Virus record (IMG/VR): IMGVR_UViG_2718217884_000002
Span: 1-14,385 of that record
Direction: 5' to 3' (one strand)
Source of the DNA: a virus
Taxonomy: Duplodnaviria; Heunggongvirae; Uroviricota; Caudoviricetes
Length of the DNA: 14,385 bases
Each line of letters opens with the position of its first letter. The stretch's first letter is position 1. A program made the position numbers and the translations under genes. Positions 1 to 7,313 of this stretch are shown piece by piece. A model generated the notes under the pieces. That model worked only from the letters and a program-made list of their open reading frames with translations. It did not search any database and had not been told where the DNA came from.

Positions 1-201
1 TTACCCATTGGCGCGGCTTAAGAGCTTATTTTTGAATTCACAATGGTCACGATATAACCATCTTGCTCGCCCGTGGATAACTTTGGCTTTAGGCAGGTCT
101 CCGGACTTAATCCGGTCATAGATGAAGGTTTTACCGAAGCCAGTATCAGCCATGATGAATTTCAAATCAACCAGTGAATCAGGCTGTAGTTCGTGTTGCA
201 T
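1..201 (-). CDS. torI: TorI/Xis-type excisionase (recombination directionality factor), 66 aa, AlpA-like winged-helix DNA-binding protein
   Basis: Complete ORF: ATG at 201..199 with GGAG 9 nt upstream, TAA at 3..1. Protein MQHELQPDSLVDLKFIMADTGFGKTFIYDRIKSG... has the Xis/AlpA HTH pattern and is recalled as matching the 66-aa TorI excisionase of KplE1/CPS-53 (memory, not searched). Sits at the opposite end of the element from the integrase. Confidence 0.6.
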   Translation of the reverse strand: MQHELQPDSLVDLKFIMADTGFGKTFIYDRIKSGDLPKAKVIHGRARWLYRDHCEFKNKLLSRANG

Positions 202-356: not shown

Positions 357-371
357 GGTAATGACTCCAAC

Positions 372-861
372 TTATTGATAGTGTTTTATGTTCAGATAAT
401 GCCCGATGACTTTGTCATGCAGCTCCACCGATTTTGAGAACGACAGCGACTTCCGTCCCAGCCGTGCCAGGTGCTGCCTCAGATTCAGGTTATGCCGCTC
501 AATTCGCTGCGTATATCGCTTGCTGATTACGTGCAGCTTTCCCTTCAGGCGGGATTCATACAGCGGCCAGCCATCACCACGTCAAAGGGTGACAGCAGGC
601 TCATAAGACGCCCCAGCGTCGCCATAGTGCGTTCCCGAATACGTGCGCAACAACCGTCTTCCGGAGCCTGTCATACGCGTAAAACAGCCAGCGCTGGCGC
701 GATTTAGCCCCGACATAGCCCCACTGTTCGTCCATTTCCGCGCAGACGATGACGTCACTGCCCGGCTGTATGCGCGAGGTTACCGACTGCGGCCTGAGTT
801 TTTTAAGTGACGTAAAATCGTGTTGAGGCCAACGCCCATAATGCGGGCTGTTGCCCGGCAT
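372..861 (-). pseudogene. insB: insB of IS1 copy A, disrupted by a 13-bp and a 1-bp deletion
   Basis: The ORF track shows only an 86-aa N-terminal InsB fragment (601..861) beginning [21 protein letters not shown]...; the copy-B equivalent is an intact 167-aa ORF. Alignment of the two copies in this window shows the missing bases. Confidence 0.8.
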
Positions 862-1055
862 CCAACGCCATTCATGGCCATATCAATGATTTTCTGGTGC
901 GTACCGGGTTGAGAAGCGGTGTAAGTGAACTGCAGTTGCCATGTTTTACGGCAGTGAGAGCAGAGATAGCGCTGATGTCCGGCGGTGCTTTTGCCGTTAC
1001 GCACCACCCCGTCAGTAGCTGAACAGGAGGGACAGCTGATAGAAACAGAAGCCAC
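780..1055 (-). CDS. insA: IS1 InsA (91 aa), intact
   Basis: 91-aa [46 protein letters not shown]... with the zinc-finger and HTH typical of IS1 InsA, inside the IS1 boundaries. Confidence 0.9.
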
Positions 1056-1083
1056 TGGAGCACCTCAAAAACACCATCATACA

Positions 1084-1275
1084 CTAAATCAGTAAGTTGG
1101 CAGCATCACCGCCTTCGCGTTCTTTATTAATTTTGACAAAATCGTTTTTACCACGCTCTCCAAATGCGTCTTTAGAGTCGTTGTATCCGCAATCGCAGCA
1201 CACATAATCATCAGACCATCCACGCATTGTTTTTTCTTTTGCAATATTTCCAGAACCGCATTTTGGACAAGACAT
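1084..1275 (-). CDS. Small zinc-ribbon protein (CPKCG...CCDCGY), C-terminus rewritten by the IS1 insertion
   Basis: ATG at 1275..1273 preceded by GGAGG 7 nt upstream; the 11 N-terminal residues in the ORF track are read-through of the RBS region. Two Cys pairs (CPKC, CDCG). The frame now runs 8 codons into IS1 (GDAANLLI, stop at 1084). Joining the flanks across the duplication gives a native end ...KEREGNEKS with stop at 335..333. Confidence 0.5.
   Translation of the reverse strand: MSCPKCGSGNIAKEKTMRGWSDDYVCCDCGYNDSKDAFGERGKNDFVKINKEREGGDAANLLI
1111..1119. repeat. Right copy of 9-bp target-site duplication GCCTTCGCG flanking IS1 copy A
   Basis: Identical to 348..356. Confidence 0.85.
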
Positions 1276-1371
1276 ATCACTACCTCCAAAGCATGAGTGA
1301 GATGACAACGTAACATTGATTGGAGATTAACAATAGATTGCTGATGTAAAAGATATGTATAAGCTTCGCTT

Positions 1372-2022
1372 TCAAAGTGGAGGCTCTGGTAGCGGCATCC
1401 AGTGAGTTACGTCATCCAAGATATTTCCTGATAAATACGTGAAAGCTCTATATTTTTTGTAATCAATTGGATTTACAACCCAGTTCCAATATGCGGCCAC
1501 GATTTCACCTTGACTAAATGCCAGTAACATTTTGGTGTCTTCCGGCATTCGCTCACTACAGCCAATCCAACCATCAGGAGTAACCGGAGAGTTGCCACCG
1601 GGAATATTTTCCGGAATATTTTGTTGTGCGTTTTGTGGTTGTTCGGATTTACCCTGAAGCATGGCAGCACGGCAGGCGTTCCAGCCAGCTGTTCGCCCAA
1701 GCGCGTAAACTTCAGATGGCTCAAGATAATCAATGTCCTGCCCGTCCTCATCGTCGTTCTCAGGTAATGCAGCAGGTACTACCGGTACTGGCGGGGCGGC
1801 GTAGACTTCAATTGTCCCATTATCAATAGGCCACTCCCCATCCTTGATGTAGTCACTTGTGCCGTCAACTTGCTGTTCAGCAATGTGGAATGCACCAACT
1901 GGCTCTGCCTCAAGCGAGGCCAGTGCAATTCGTGCCAGTTCCATTTGTTCGCCACGGGTAAGCCCGTTTTCAAGCGGGGATTTAATGAACAATTCGATAC
2001 GTTCTTTAGTGATAGTGCTCAT
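1372..2022 (-). CDS. DUF551-family prophage protein (about 216 aa)
   Basis: Start ATG 2022..2020 with AGGAGA upstream, 1 nt after the stop of the preceding gene. C-terminal region (...DGWIGCSERMPEDTKMLLAF...THWMPLPEPPL) resembles the DUF551 domain common in enterobacterial prophage early regions (recall). Confidence 0.55.
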   Translation of the reverse strand: MSTITKERIELFIKSPLENGLTRGEQMELARIALASLEAEPVGAFHIAEQQVDGTSDYIKDGEWPIDNGTIEVYAAPPVPVVPAALPENDDEDGQDIDYLEPSEVYALGRTAGWNACRAAMLQGKSEQPQNAQQNIPENIPGGNSPVTPDGWIGCSERMPEDTKMLLAFSQGEIVAAYWNWVVNPIDYKKYRAFTYLSGNILDDVTHWMPLPEPPL

Positions 2023-2023
2023 A

Positions 2024-2746
2024 TCACTCTCCTTTGATGCGAATGCCAGCGGCGCGGATAGATTTCCATTGTTTCCACATTCGGTTGAAGTCTGTGCCTG
2101 ATAAGGTTGCGTTACGGTATCCAGTTTCGGTGCGCAATCCTTCAAGCGTCGATTTGGAGATACAAATTGAATGCATTACCCATGATTCAAACAAATCACG
2201 CTCACGGGCTTCGCAACTTTGCTTACTCATCTCTTCGATACGTTCAGCCATCGCAGCACACTCTTCAAAGTTGCTTAATGCTTTTCGCTCCCATTCGGCG
2301 CATTGTTTTTCCAGTTCTGCAATGCGCTTACTTCCATCCGCGATTACTCCCTCGTAATATTCACGCTGCTCGTTGAGTTTTGATTTTGCTGCTTCAAGCT
2401 CAACGCGCAGCTTCCCTACCGTTAACACAATCTCCTCGTTCTCCTGGTCGCGGCGTTTGATGTATTGCTGGTTTCTTTCCAGCTCATCCAGCAGCGCCAA
2501 GACGGTAGCGGGATTGGCTGCGGCGATGAATTCAGCATTGGCCTGCTGTTCCATTTGGAAATCTTCATCGAAACCGCTTTCTGGATGCGCTCCTTCAATT
2601 CTGCAAATGGGAAGATATCCAACAACTTCACGATGAATTAGTGCATCACCAGCATCAAATCTCTCCTCTCCATATTCGAGCGACCACACACCACACGTTG
2701 CTTTTTCTGCCGCTTCACGCAGTGCCTGATAGTCAATCTTGTTCAT
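2024..2746 (-). CDS. Ead/Ea22-like early-left protein (240 aa), coiled-coil rich
   Basis: ATG 2746 with GGTGA 6 nt upstream; N-terminus MNKIDYQALREAAEKATCG... and central heptad-rich region resemble the Ea22-like family of lambdoid prophages (recall). Confidence 0.55.
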   Translation of the reverse strand: MNKIDYQALREAAEKATCGVWSLEYGEERFDAGDALIHREVVGYLPICRIEGAHPESGFDEDFQMEQQANAEFIAAANPATVLALLDELERNQQYIKRRDQENEEIVLTVGKLRVELEAAKSKLNEQREYYEGVIADGSKRIAELEKQCAEWERKALSNFEECAAMAERIEEMSKQSCEARERDLFESWVMHSICISKSTLEGLRTETGYRNATLSGTDFNRMWKQWKSIRAAGIRIKGE

Positions 2747-2747
2747 G

Positions 2748-3047
2748 TCACATCACCCTGAAGCCGTTGCATTTACGTAAGAAATCGCAGATATAGCCCT
2801 TCATTTTTTCATGCCAATCTCGATCATTCCCATTGCACCACCCATCAGGTGGAGTCCAGTTTTCTATCAGAGCAGCCATTTTCTTTGCTTTCGCCGGAGT
2901 AGCTGTTGCGGTATCGCAGTAATGACGAGTGTCAACAAACTTATCCATGCCATCGATATCAAGTACGCAAAACCATGTGTGATTCGGAATTCCTACAGGT
3001 GGTATTTGTTGCCCACGTCGGCGTTTATCAATGAGATATACACTCAC
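2748..3047 (-). CDS. Hypothetical early-left protein (99 aa)
   Basis: GTG start at 3047 with a strong AAGGAGG 6 nt upstream; start overlaps the stop of the upstream gene (GTGA). No family recognised. Confidence 0.5.
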   Translation of the reverse strand: MSVYLIDKRRRGQQIPPVGIPNHTWFCVLDIDGMDKFVDTRHYCDTATATPAKAKKMAALIENWTPPDGWCNGNDRDWHEKMKGYICDFLRKCNGFRVM

Positions 3048-3493
3048 TGGTTACCTCCTTTGCGAAGCTCTGCGGCGAACTCGTTAAGTGATATGTAGCA
3101 ATCTCCAAATGTTAACGAACCGCTCGACTGCATATGCTCCATAGCCATCTCCACGCCCTGCGCCCGTACTTCAGCCAGGAAAGCATCGGTGGCTGGGGTT
3201 TCAGTAACATCATCTTCCCATTCGCTAAACTCCTCACGACAAAAGTCATTAAATTCCTTCTCAGATTGCTTAAGCGAGGTATTTTCAGCAGCCATCTTCG
3301 CGCATTTAGCCTCAAGGTTATCAATCGTGATTCCAGCAGAACGACACTCCCGCAACGCCGTTTCTAGTTTTGATTCAAGTTCACCGAACTTACGCACCAG
3401 ATATTCAGCGTTTGTTTCGTTAACCTTTAAATCTCGGGGGATGCATTTACCTTTCAGAAAACCATCCATCTCAATTAGTGACATTTGTTTCAT
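3044..3493 (-). CDS. Hypothetical coiled-coil early-left protein (149 aa from [12 protein letters not shown]...)
   Basis: ATG 3493 with GGAG 9 nt upstream, overlapping the stop of the upstream small ORF (ATGA). No family recognised. Confidence 0.5.
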
Positions 3494-3654
3494 TTCTTCC
3501 CACTCCGCCACATTGCATTCAGATATTTGTTGTCATTAACAGAGCCGAAACTATTTCTCTTAAGCAATTCCTCTCTCGATGGCATTGGCTTTACGCGTTG
3601 GCGAATAATCATTTCTGCCGGAAGAATGCCGGGATTGTATGCAAGTCCTCTCAT
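3490..3654 (-). CDS. Small hypothetical protein (54 aa, [32 protein letters not shown]...)
   Basis: ATG 3654 with GAGGA 7 nt upstream; translationally coupled to neighbours on both sides. The longer 104-aa ORF in the track is probably an unsupported N-terminal extension. Confidence 0.4.
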
Positions 3655-3664
3655 GGTAAATTCC

Positions 3665-3958
3665 TCAGTCATTACTGATAGCGCCATAGCGTGAGCGGTA
3701 ATTACGCAGGCGCGGGTCAATTTCAGGGAAGTGGGTATATGTGGCTTTGCGGAATGGTCGGATTGATATCTGGTAAATTCGCTCGCGTTCTTCTTTCTCT
3801 GCAAGCCATATACAATAGCGAAATTCCTTTTCCTCTTTCGTTTCCTGCGGTAGAGACATTATTCGATCGTAGTTTTTTCTGAATTTATCCAGCACCTCCG
3901 ATACGGAATTGCCGGAACAGCGGCGCGGGTCATCCGCACCATACAGAGGCGCTGGCAT
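3665..3958 (-). CDS. Hypothetical early-left protein (97 aa)
   Basis: ATG 3958 with AAGGA 8 nt upstream; same strand and tight spacing as neighbours. No family recognised. Confidence 0.45.
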
Positions 3959-3981
3959 AATTAAATCCTTATTTTTCTAAA

Positions 3982-4365
3982 TCAGAATGGGATGGAATCG
4001 TCGTATACAGGATGATTTTGATGATTGCTACTTTGCTGCTGTTGGCTGTTTCCTGAAGTTGCAAATCCAATCTTTGCATTCAGTAATTCAAGAGTGATTG
4101 ATTGACCATTTTGCCCCTGATAAACATCAACCCTGATGTTTTCTCCGGTAATTTCCACAATTCCACCTTCAACAAGAACACTACGGTAGTAATCCGCTTG
4201 CGCTCCCGGCTTGGCAAATACAACGGCGCTGTAGTTTGTCCATTCTTTCTTTTTTGTCTGGCGATCGTAATACTGAACGCCAGCACGGATGTTGAATCCG
4301 ATATTTTCCCCGGCCTGAAACTCTCTTGCGGGCTTGTTTAGTCTTACAGTAATCGAATGTGCCAT
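3982..4365 (-). CDS. ssb: Phage single-stranded DNA-binding protein-like (127 aa) with acidic C-terminal tip ...YDDSIPF
   Basis: ATG 4365..4363 with AAGGAG 10 nt upstream, overlapping the upstream stop (TAATG). OB-fold-like core (KEWTNYSAVVFAKPG...LVEGGIVEITGE) followed by a Q/S-rich linker and a DDSIPF tail resembling the bacterial SSB C-terminal DDDIPF motif (established knowledge). Confidence 0.6.
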   Translation of the reverse strand: MAHSITVRLNKPAREFQAGENIGFNIRAGVQYYDRQTKKKEWTNYSAVVFAKPGAQADYYRSVLVEGGIVEITGENIRVDVYQGQNGQSITLELLNAKIGFATSGNSQQQQSSNHQNHPVYDDSIPF

Positions 4366-4577
4366 TAAGCAGCCGCTCCTTCTAATTCGTCTCGTCTGAT
4401 GTTGTAAACGTCCTGCGCTTTGTGCTGCTCCGGTGTGCCTTCGAGCATCTTCCACGCTTTGGCGAACGCCTGTTTAAGCTCTTCCACGGTGTTTTTCTGC
4501 AATGCTGCGTCAGTGAATGCTTTTAGAACCTGTTCTGATGCGGCTAACTTTGAAGCAAGGCTCGACACCTTTAAAGC
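4365..4577 (-). pseudogene. 5'-truncated remnant of an early-left gene, possibly the C-terminus of a recombinase that normally precedes ssb
   Basis: Frame opens only 3 codons above a GTG at 4568 with no usable RBS; the remnant ends TAA overlapping the ssb ATG. Sits exactly at the predicted deletion junction. Recombinase identity is inference from typical phage gene order only. Confidence 0.3.
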
Positions 4578-4578
4578 T

Positions 4579-4845
4579 CAAACATTCCTTCCTATGGTGC
4601 AGTCCCTGAAGGGTATGGGCGCTCTTTCAGATGCTGAGGGTAAAAAACTATCCGATGCGGTTGGTGCCCTAAGTCCCAAAATGAGTGAAAAGGCTTTTCG
4701 TGACTCTATCGGAAAGATTAGAAATCAGCTTGAAAGCAAGTTGAGCACTGTTAAAAAACAGTTTGATTATCAGGAGCCGGTGCAGAATATGCCAGGGCAA
4801 CAATCTACTACTGGCAGTAACTTTTCTTCACTATGGGGTGATTAA
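4579..4845 (+). pseudogene. 5'-truncated 3' remnant of a virion ejection (DNA-transfer) protein gene
   Basis: Protein-like reading (...FKAQTFLPMVQSLKGMGALSDAEGKKLSDAVGALSPK...) with no plausible start or RBS; its stop TAA overlaps the next ATG (TAATG at 4843..4847). Ejection-protein assignment is from position upstream of the tailspike only. Confidence 0.3.
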
Positions 4846-5744
4846 TGGCTAAAGCATGGAAAGATGTTATCGCCTCTCCACAGTATCAGGCGTTAGCACC
4901 AGAACAAAAAGCGCAGGCTCAGGAGCAATACTTCAATGAAGTCGTGGCCCCGCAAGCCGGAGAAAATGCAGAGCAGGCTAAGCAAGCTTTCTATGCTGCC
5001 TATCCATTGCCATCTGTGCAGCAAGTGGAGACACAGCAACCAGTAGCACAGCAACAACCACAGCAAAGTGGATTTATGTCTGATCTTGGCGAAGCAGTAA
5101 AAGAGACTGGCCGCGGACTGGTGCAGGCTGGCGTGAACGTGGCAAACATACCTGCATCAGTTGCAGATGCTGTAACAAGCGCGGCGGCTTGGGCTGGCGG
5201 TAAACTCGGAATTGGCGATGGGACATATCACCCTGCGCCACGAGTAACAACGCAGGGATTAGAGCAGGACTTTGGCCTTCAGCAAGGCGCGCTGACTCCA
5301 CAAACTACAGAGGGAAGGGTATTTGCTGAGGCATTGCCTTACCTCACTCCTGCTGGCATTGAGAGAGCGGCAACACAGGCACCAACACTCGCTGGTAGAA
5401 TCGCTCAGGGTGCAACTCGCCTTCTCGCTGAAAACGCAGTCGGGTCACTTGCTGCAAATAGTGCGAAAGATGATGCGGAAGCACTCGCTACCGATTTAGG
5501 CGTTGGCGTTCTGGCTGGCGGCGCTATTAACGCTGCCGGACGTGGATTAGGCGCTGCTTATCGTGGCGTTCGTGGTGCTATTGCACCAGAAGCGCAGCAA
5601 GCTATCAGATTTGCAGAGCGTGAAGGAGTGCCTCTGCACACCACAGACCTGTTACAGCCTACTTCCCGCGTCGGAAAAATGGCGCAAACGACAGCAGAAA
5701 ATATCCCCCTGGCTGGCACAAGCGGAATGAGAGCAACGCAATAG
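4845..5744 (+). CDS. Ejection/internal virion protein-like, A/Q/G-rich (299 aa)
   Basis: ATG 4845 coupled to the upstream remnant. Low-complexity A/Q/G-rich composition and location two genes upstream of a P22-type tailspike fit the gp20/gp16-like ejection proteins of P22-like phages (synteny inference). Ends at TAG 5742..5744, in frame with the next ORF. Confidence 0.45.
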   Translation: MAKAWKDVIASPQYQALAPEQKAQAQEQYFNEVVAPQAGENAEQAKQAFYAAYPLPSVQQVETQQPVAQQQPQQSGFMSDLGEAVKETGRGLVQAGVNVANIPASVADAVTSAAAWAGGKLGIGDGTYHPAPRVTTQGLEQDFGLQQGALTPQTTEGRVFAEALPYLTPAGIERAATQAPTLAGRIAQGATRLLAENAVGSLAANSAKDDAEALATDLGVGVLAGGAINAAGRGLGAAYRGVRGAIAPEAQQAIRFAEREGVPLHTTDLLQPTSRVGKMAQTTAENIPLAGTSGMRATQ

Positions 5745-5759
5745 GAAGCGAGAAGCCAG

Positions 5760-6842
5760 TTGGTTCAGAGATTTGCTGATAAATTCGGTGAGTATGATCC
5801 AGCGGTTGTTATTGACAGCCTTAAAGCGAAAACATCAGGAATTCGTCGCGCTGCAGGAAATCGACTGGAGCAGGTTCAGAATGCTATGGCGGGAATAAAC
5901 ATTCAGCCTGCAAGAGCAATTCAGCAGATTGATACAGAAATATCTAACCTGCAGAAGCTTGGTAAGGTTGCTGATAACGAGACTATTTCAAAACTTCAGT
6001 CCTATCGTGATGAGCTTGTTCGCAATGCTGGTCCTGATGGTCCGGTAAATCTGGATTTGAAGCAATTAAGCGATCTGCGCAGCCAGTTCAGAATGGACGT
6101 GAAGGGGGAGCGACCAGTGTTACCAAACCGTTCCGATGCTGCCATTCAGCGCGTTTACAAGGCAATGACCGACGATATCAATGGTGCCATTGGTCAGAAT
6201 CTTGGCAACGATACTCTCCGTAAATATCAGCAGGCCAATGCCGTCTACGCTGACGAAGCGGCGAAACTAAAGAATACCAGGCTGAAGAATGTTCTCATGA
6301 AAGGCGACCTGACGCCGGAAGTTGTCAACAACATGCTATTCAGCAAGAACAAATCGGAAATTAAGACTCTCTATAACTCAGTTGGTCGTGTTGGCAGGGC
6401 GCAAATGCGCAATGGCATCATTGGAAAGGCGATGGAGAAATCAGGTGGTTCCCCTGACCAGTTCCTTCGGCAGCTTAACATCCTGCAAAACCAGACTGGC
6501 ATCACATTTAAAGGTCAGGAAGCCGCTTATCTGAAAGGATTGAAAAACTACCTGCAATCCACGCAGCAGGCTGCAAAAGCGGCAGTAACAACACCCACAG
6601 GGCAGCAAACTATCCCGTTCATTATTGGGTATGGGACGGCAATGAACCCGGCGACAACTGGCGCAGCAGTAAGCTACGGACTTCTTACTCGCGCCTATGA
6701 GAGCGAGCCATTCAGAAATGCAATGCTCCGAATGGCAAACACCCCACGCGGATCAACAGCGTTCGAGAAAGCCATGCAGCAGGCACAAAAGGCCATTAAC
6801 GCCCTGACTCAGGGGGCTAAGTCTGATGCGCTGTCAGAATAG
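5760..6842 (+). CDS. Ejection/internal virion protein-like (360 aa), possibly the downstream part of one gene interrupted by an amber codon
   Basis: Same reading frame as 4845..5744, separated by a single TAG and 5 codons. The only start is TTG at 5760 with a poorly spaced GGAAG; the first in-frame ATG is about 40 codons in. Confidence 0.4.
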   Translation: MVQRFADKFGEYDPAVVIDSLKAKTSGIRRAAGNRLEQVQNAMAGINIQPARAIQQIDTEISNLQKLGKVADNETISKLQSYRDELVRNAGPDGPVNLDLKQLSDLRSQFRMDVKGERPVLPNRSDAAIQRVYKAMTDDINGAIGQNLGNDTLRKYQQANAVYADEAAKLKNTRLKNVLMKGDLTPEVVNNMLFSKNKSEIKTLYNSVGRVGRAQMRNGIIGKAMEKSGGSPDQFLRQLNILQNQTGITFKGQEAAYLKGLKNYLQSTQQAAKAAVTTPTGQQTIPFIIGYGTAMNPATTGAAVSYGLLTRAYESEPFRNAMLRMANTPRGSTAFEKAMQQAQKAINALTQGAKSDALSE

Positions 6843-6931
6843 CTTCGCAAACACCAGGAACGTGCAAAAACCAAATATGTAGAACGCAATATTCAGCATA
6901 TCTCTTTGCATAAATCCTCCGTAATGGATGG

Positions 6932-7192
6932 TTATCTGCTGTCTTTTTTATATAGCTTCTTGAGCGTATCAAAGACAATTTTCTTAACCATATCAGATTG
7001 TTGTTCTGCCATACGCTCTGCATCGTCAATGTAAACTGATGCAGAGCTTTGTTTAGCCAACGATTCTTCAATCGCTGCAATTATCTCTGAGTTCAGCGAT
7101 CTGTTATTCATCTTCGCACGCTGCTTAATTTTCGCGTGGAGTTCATGCGGAAGTCTCAAGTGAAACTGCGCCTCGTCGTATTTGCTGTACAT
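6932..7192 (-). CDS. mnt: Mnt-like ribbon-helix-helix repressor (Arc/MetJ family), 86 aa
   Basis: ATG 7192 with GGTGAGG upstream. ...YDEAQFHLRLPHELHAKIKQRAKMNNRSLNSEIIAAIEESL...DDAERMAEQQSDMVKKIVFDTLKKLYKK aligns along its length with phage P22 Mnt as recalled (FNFRMP...NGRSMNSE...NDAERLADEQSELVKKMVFDTLKDLYKK). Divergent from the tailspike, as in the P22 immI region. Confidence 0.7.
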   Translation of the reverse strand: MYSKYDEAQFHLRLPHELHAKIKQRAKMNNRSLNSEIIAAIEESLAKQSSASVYIDDAERMAEQQSDMVKKIVFDTLKKLYKKDSR

Positions 7193-7265
7193 CCTTGATG
7201 CCTCACCAGTTGGGTGGAATGGCATCGTAACCTACTGGATAAATACTCAATAGTACCATTTCGGT

Positions 7266-7296
7266 ATGCAATCACATCATGGTTGCATCATATCAT
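7266..7296. promoter_or_regulatory. Candidate operator/promoter: palindrome ATGCAA-N11-TTGCAT overlapping direct repeats ATCACATCAT / ATCATATCAT, 18-48 bp upstream of the tailspike ATG
   Basis: ATGCAA 7266..7271 and TTGCAT 7283..7288; ATCACATCAT 7271..7280 and ATCATATCAT 7287..7296; TATCAT (7291..7296) is a possible -10. In the divergent mnt-tailspike intergenic region. Confidence 0.25.
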
Positions 7297-7313
7297 TCGT
7301 CTGGAGCAATGAA

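Follow-up and report, generated by a model that had tools for sequence, protein, structure and literature searches.

A probable deletion scar joining erf to the gp20-homologue gene in a putatively defective P22/Sf6-type prophage at the argW-dsdCXA site of Escherichia coli

Two short genes point away from each other between positions 4365 and 4845 of the viral record analysed here (IMGVR_UViG_2718217884_000002; the window, that is, the whole stretch of 14,385 nucleotides). A preliminary description had taken them for an early-gene and a late-gene remnant brought together by one deletion with both endpoints inside genes. This raises the questions of where exactly the joint lies, what has been lost and how such a locus came about. 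Our preferred reading, to which we assign a probability of about 0.77, is that the window represents a complete defective P22/Sf6 (Lederbergvirus)-type prophage, extending from torI to intS, at the argW-dsdCXA site, and that its scar stems from the loss of about 26 kb in a single illegitimate deletion independent of RecA.

Window positions 3000-7300 were compared by megablast with phages and with 5,426 complete E. coli genomes. Alignments of the early-left arm stopped at 4535, and those with Sf6 genes 12-13 and related sequences started at 4534. A 301-bp probe centred on the joint retrieved hundreds of erf genes that were 100% identical over 4385-4535 and ended at 4535, and among the phages and E. 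coli genomes no record spanned both sides. The erf genes of H-19B, HK106 and many E. coli prophages were 100% identical as far as 4535 and not beyond, and from 4534 on the other arm was 97% identical to Sf6 at the nucleotide level. When the window was aligned with HK633 erf and Sf6 gene 12 together, the change from one gene to the other was abrupt and fell at 4534/4535. The same switch was obtained when the window was compared base by base with both breakpoints of an intact P22-like prophage of E. coli strain H1. The joint had previously been placed at about 4577-4579, with a spacer of about 10 bp and possible microhomology at 4565-4600. The alignments locate it about 43 nt further left, the spacer does not exist, and no microhomology was found in that interval, the sole overlap being the TC at 4534-4535.

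The divergent stubs represent the C-terminal fragments of a 201-aa Erf and a 431-aa gp12, as expected for two 5'-truncated genes. The erf stub agrees with residues 146-201 of HK633 Erf in 55 of 56 amino acids, and the gene 12 stub with residues 329-431 of Sf6 gp12 in 100 of 103. The stubs amount to 28% of erf and 24% of gene 12, and neither is a complete gene. The outer limits given before, 4365 and 4845, were exact and coincide with the stop codons of erf (4365-4367, minus strand) and gene 12 (4843-4845). The inner limits have to be revised: the minus-strand remnant, drawn as 4365..4577, is indeed an early-gene fragment but ends at 4535, positions 4536-4577 being antisense gene 12, and the plus-strand remnant, drawn as about 4579..4845, is a late-gene fragment but starts at 4534. 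The statement that both lack a start and a ribosome binding site is correct for the native starts, but a GTG at 4568, an ATG at 4594 and a TTG at 4420 are fortuitously present, none of them, as read from the sequence, with a well-placed Shine-Dalgarno motif. Automatic gene callers report two of the resulting frames, a chimeric 67-aa and an 83-aa ORF; an exact look-up of a 141-aa ORF with a TTG start gave no record. A scan for promoters and terminators around the junction yielded no signal beyond shuffled expectation. The features of the window are compiled in Table 1.

Table 1. Features of the window, with the position, strand and basis of each assignment
Feature	Position	Strand	Basis and remarks
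torI/xis (recombination directionality factor)	1..201	-	ORF; annotated torI in matching E. coli loci; attR-proximal end
IS1 copy 1	357..1110		754 bp, 14 bp short; insB frame disrupted; 9-bp target duplication GCCTTCGCG at 348-356 and 1111-1119; cuts 3' end of Lar-like gene
Early-left genes, promoter-less: Lar-like, DUF551, ead/Ea22, DUF7739, 149-155-aa ORF, DUF2737, abc2 (anti-RecBCD), 127-aa HK97 gp40-like ORF	1111..4365	-	ORFs; Pfam on identical sister contigs; HK633 annotation
3' remnant of erf (ssDNA-annealing recombinase)	4365..4535	-	codons 146-201 and stop; 5' 435 nt and start codon deleted
Fortuitous chimeric 67-aa ORF	4365..4568	-	11 codons of antisense gene 12, then 56 erf codons; exact marker of the junction
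Deletion junction	4534..4535		2-bp overlap TC (T4534, C4535) common to both parental sequences, no filler DNA; three-way alignments: HK633 erf and Sf6 gene 12, and both H1 breakpoints
3' remnant of Sf6 gene 12 / P22 gp20 homologue (DNA ejection protein)	4534..4845	+	codons 329-431 and stop; first 984 nt deleted
Fortuitous 83-aa ORF	4594..4845		reported by gene callers
Gene 13 (Sf6) / P22 gp16 homologue, ejection protein, pseudogene	4845..6842	+	split at 5742-5744 by a nonsense codon (CAG to TAG) into two same-frame ORFs of 299 aa and 360 aa
Mnt/Arc-family repressor gene	6932..7225	-	PF11423, PF03869
Tailspike, P22-type head-binding domain, intact	7314..9683	+	789 aa from ATG 7314 (longest ORF begins at 7266); PF09008 5.8e-67; gene calls in sister contigs
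Acyl_transf_3 family acyltransferase, lysogenic-conversion position	9713..10786	-	PF01757 5e-35; called as a 357-aa gene on sister contigs
Conserved 335-aa gene of unknown function, adjoins intS	11268..12238 + 13016-13052	-	first ~12 codons split off by IS1 copy 2; no Pfam family above threshold
IS1 copy 2	12239..13006		768 bp, divergent variant, ~91% identical to IS1A; 9-bp target duplication CGCTGTAGG at 12230-12238 and 13007-13015
intS integrase, intact, 385 aa	13228..14385	-	full integrase domain set; attL/argW-proximal end

Intact relatives had been said to carry more than 20 kb, from the immunity region to the head genes, between the two arms. In the H1 prophage, which is located at thrW and contains both arms in the same relative orientation, the breakpoints lie 25,981 bp apart, a distance measured on a relative of 96-98% identity and hence an approximation of the true deleted length. 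The erf side is 97.7% identical to the window up to position 6613 of that locus and the gene 12 side 96.3% identical from 32593. A near-identical (>99%) intact parent was not found. On the scale of H1, the missing interval comprises 41 annotated CDS and 2 tRNAs. It begins with the 5' 435 nt of erf, kil, cIII and the immunity region (cI-like, cro-like, cII), continues with the replication genes, the nin region, Q, the two tRNAs, holin, endolysin and Rz, and includes both terminase subunits, portal, scaffold and coat as well as the gp4, gp10, gp26, gp14 and gp7 homologues and the first 984 nt of gene 12. The functions that the preliminary description considered lost, namely replication, lysis and capsid formation, all fall within this interval. 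Since complete immunity, replication, lysis, packaging and head modules are absent from the ORF map of the window, the element is a defective remnant and not a phage.

The left arm finds its best matches among isolated phages in the lambdoid siphoviruses mEp506, HK633 and HK544 (97-98%), which would be in line with an origin of the two arms from different prophages, be it two lysogens in tandem at argW or a lambdoid siphovirus next to a P22-like phage, followed by deletion or recombination across their boundary. The order of intS, attP core and torI in E. coli no107 (see below) is compatible with the occurrence of such tandem arrays. However, the same early-left module is present in a bona fide P22-like prophage, that of H1, at 97.7% identity and in the expected orientation, and it is mosaic among lambdoid phages. 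A tandem origin would moreover need a deletion longer by one prophage length and explain nothing more. We consider a two-prophage origin very improbable and continue with a deletion inside one prophage.

The arms of the window are collinear with the intact relative, and they meet abruptly in the 2-bp TC overlap, with neither filler DNA nor an IS between them. Alignments with HK633 erf, Sf6 gene 12 and both H1 breakpoints revealed no IS and no repeat at the junction, and the comparison with the H1 prophage revealed no extended homology between the parental sequences at the two breakpoints. On these grounds IS-mediated, homologous and site-specific recombination were excluded. A deletion mediated by IS1 was likewise rejected: both copies are distant from 4534, each is flanked by its own target duplication, and copy 1 is missing from the otherwise 100% identical contigs L020 and L008. 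With IS, repeat and extended homology lacking at the joint, RecA-independent illegitimate joining, by end-joining or slippage, would be the process that remains. By our own arithmetic, a random joint has an overlap of at least 2 bp with a probability of 1 - 0.5625 - 0.281, or about 0.16, and significant microhomology was rejected on this basis. The overlap thus appears no greater than random joining yields, and the repair pathway would not be identifiable from it.

Is the junction a real and heritable structure? The adjacency was found in none of 50,697 phage records, in agreement with the earlier expectation for intact phages, and it was absent from the 5,426 complete E. coli genomes. The exact 24-mer across the joint was absent from IMG/VR viral contigs and from one-genome-per-species contigs, and was detected in one human-gut contig of the metagenome set. 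When the chimeric 67-aa product was looked up by exact match, 41 blocks of a public assembly collection were returned. In total, at least 24 contigs carry the identical junction. They stem from Logan SRA assemblies, from ENA human-gut metagenomes and from the NCBI assemblies GCA_907175915.1 and GCA_900526845.1, and every contig read has the same 24-mer across the joint. Wherever flanks are present, their order is yfdC, argW (tRNA-Arg CCT), intS ... torI, dsdC, dsdX, dsdA, emrYK, evgAS, which is the order of the E. coli argW-dsdCXA island. Since the joint is identical in all these contigs and always lies in the same chromosomal order, it is not an assembly artefact and is vertically inherited and fixed in one lineage. 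An assembly chimera, or a natural mosaic joint of a viable phage, has the abruptness of the switch as the only point in its favour, and is refuted by the identical joint in many independent assemblies, the truncation of both genes and the lack of any phage or viral contig with the joint; its probability is negligible.

Comparison of the junction-bearing contigs allowed the changes to be ordered. Contig ERR7226512 is 100% identical to the window apart from IS1 copy 1. A sister lineage (L018/L007) has inherited the same joint and differs by 4 SNPs in 8.5 kb. Here both IS1 copies are absent and gene 13 retains the CAG codon, encoding an intact 665-aa product (PF26808 on L018). This lineage has in addition suffered a deletion of its own, of 1,649 bp (~1.65 kb; window 2114-3762), whose ends meet in a TT overlap and combine the DUF551 gene and abc2 into a 311-aa hybrid ORF (L018 9150-9190, corresponding to window 2113/3763). 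The two lineages thus share the large joint and differ in these other respects, and therefore the large deletion came first and small-scale decay followed independently in each lineage.

Such stepwise decay, comprising the second deletion with its TT overlap, the IS1 insertions and the nonsense codon, also bears on the number of events behind the main scar. Several successive deletions, the last of which erased the earlier scars, would produce the same junction; other E. coli remnants, for example L019, carry multiple scars. On the other hand, partial-deletion intermediates were not found among contigs with related sequence, and one event is sufficient. We regard a series of deletions as unlikely. 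That both endpoints lie within genes, in erf and in gene 12, is observed directly; for the single event that the preliminary description also assumed, we infer that one deletion took place.

What remains of the element is organised like a KplE1-type prophage. In the IntS/TorI recombination module of KplE1, intS and torI are located at opposite prophage ends (PMC2951348, PMC3509656). KplE1, Sf6, HK620 and Kapi1 share a layout with attP between int and xis, so that these genes end up at opposite ends after integration (PMC2951348, PMC3509656, PMC8787464). The same arrangement is seen here, with torI and intS at the two ends of the window and both on the minus strand. Since attP lies between int and xis in this phage group, the window spans the entire prophage remnant. 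The genes for the gp20 and gp16 homologues and, behind them, the tailspike gene with its P22-type head-binding domain stand in the order of Sf6, and genes 12-13 share 97% nucleotide identity with Sf6, as in a P22-like phage. The retention of int, xis, the tailspike and conversion genes, as proposed before, is borne out by intS, torI, the tailspike gene and the gene for an O-antigen-type acyltransferase. The 335-aa gene takes a moron position between the acyltransferase gene and intS; L018, L007 and E. coli Z1323HEC0011 carry an intact copy.

The att sites are not part of the window and were read from sister contigs of identical sequence. In L018, argW (tRNA-Arg(CCT)) adjoins intS. The argW copy of the 16-nt core CTGCAGGGGACACCAT agrees at 15 of 16 positions, and a dsdC-side copy is present that is 1-2 nt shorter. 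The shortening of this attR core affects a C-run between dsdC and torI (L018 7730-7750 and L020 ~6080-6100). Together with the argW mismatch, it may point to impaired excision competence or to homopolymer assembly errors. In E. coli no107 (L006 11442-13052), gtrABC, intS, an intact 16-nt core and torI follow one another on the chromosome in vegetative (attP) order, within a prophage region containing many frameshifted genes; this points to a tandem array, to integration at another place or to a poor-quality assembly.

One of the closest known systems is KplE1/CPS-53 of E. coli K-12. It occupies the same site, argW, with the same IntS/TorI module, intS first and torI last; it too is devoid of immunity, replication, lysis and head genes, and O-antigen-modification-type genes adjoin intS (PMC2951348, PMC3509656). 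In contrast to KplE1/CPS-53, the window keeps a gp16 homologue, the Mnt/Arc gene, a complete tailspike gene and an acyltransferase gene on one side and abc2 with the erf stub on the other, and its deletion junction is still readable to the base. The intact, argW-integrating phages Sf6, HK620 and Kapi1 and the H1 reference prophage resemble the window in gene order and, on both arms, at 96-98% nucleotide identity, but in them the ~26-kb block lost from the window is present, and erf and gene 12 have their full length. The prophage remnant carrying oac1b in S. flexneri was considered and found to be unrelated to the element. Judged by its sequence, the element would be a KplE1/CPS-53-type cryptic prophage, hence a known phenomenon, and a remnant different from KplE1/CPS-53 itself.

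Comparable scars exist in other P22-like remnants of E. coli. Gene 12 is joined to N in AST198 (near sbcB; 435 nt of gene 12 left), to ead in H2 (argW; 78 nt), to the post-cII region in L017 (near sbcB; 508 nt) and to holin in L019 (thrW; K1-endosialidase tailspike; 620 nt). The scars with left ends in N, ead, the post-cII region and holin were located at L003 9363-10025, L004 4826-5263, L017 9674-9745 and L019 9222-9635, respectively. As in the window, an internal deletion has removed the central lethal and structural block, and the gp16 homologue, tailspike and conversion genes are kept. The left and right breakpoints differ from those of the window and the loci are partly others (near sbcB, thrW), indicating independent events. 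A separate observation concerns L019, L021, L023 and L024, in which thrW harbors a multi-scarred P22-like remnant resembling CUS-3. It keeps a K1-type endosialidase tailspike of 981 aa together with a hexapeptide acetyltransferase.

With the window included, the five remnants come from different E. coli lineages and three loci and all keep the block of gp16 homologue, mnt, tailspike, conversion genes and int. Their right endpoints lie 620, 508, 435, 312 and 78 nt from the stop codon of the gp20 homologue, values obtained by searches biased towards the 3' region of gene 12, a strongly mosaic gene in which alignment ends are unreliable. That at least five independent right endpoints within the last 620 nt reflect a deletion hotspot, or selection for the downstream module, instead of chance seems quite improbable to us. 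A hotspot is not claimed, given the search bias, the mosaicism of gene 12 and the existence of remnants that break elsewhere, such as that of ECL27977, where abc2 is joined to the middle of gene 13. The common right endpoint in gene 12 is possibly an ascertainment effect.

We propose the following course of events for the window. One RecA-independent illegitimate deletion of ~26 kb inside an integrated prophage would have brought codon 146 of erf next to codon 329 of the gp20-homologue gene; either end-joining or slippage during replication may have produced it, with no more than 2 bp of homology involved. Lost with the deleted block are PL, N, the immunity and replication regions, nin/Q, both phage tRNAs, the genes for lysis, terminase, portal, scaffold and coat, those for head completion, and the gp7 homologue. 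Neither gene stub retains its 5' end, and both operons, early-left and late, are left without promoters. With promoters and central functions gone, the remnant would be incapable of induction, replication, host lysis and particle formation, and its inheritance is vertical. Loss of the lethal functions may have been selected for; Bobay et al. reportedly argued in 2014, for defective prophages in general, that such loss is under selection.

No new mechanism or system is revealed by this locus, and its value lies mainly in annotation and lineage marking. The scar accounts for the short ORFs at 4365-4845 that lack full-length homologues, and the whole window becomes definable as a grounded KplE1-type prophage. 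The 24-mer across 4534/4535 provides a base-exact marker of one E. coli lineage. Finally, the element offers an ordered example of prophage decay, in which a large deletion was followed by a nonsense codon, IS1 insertions and smaller deletions.
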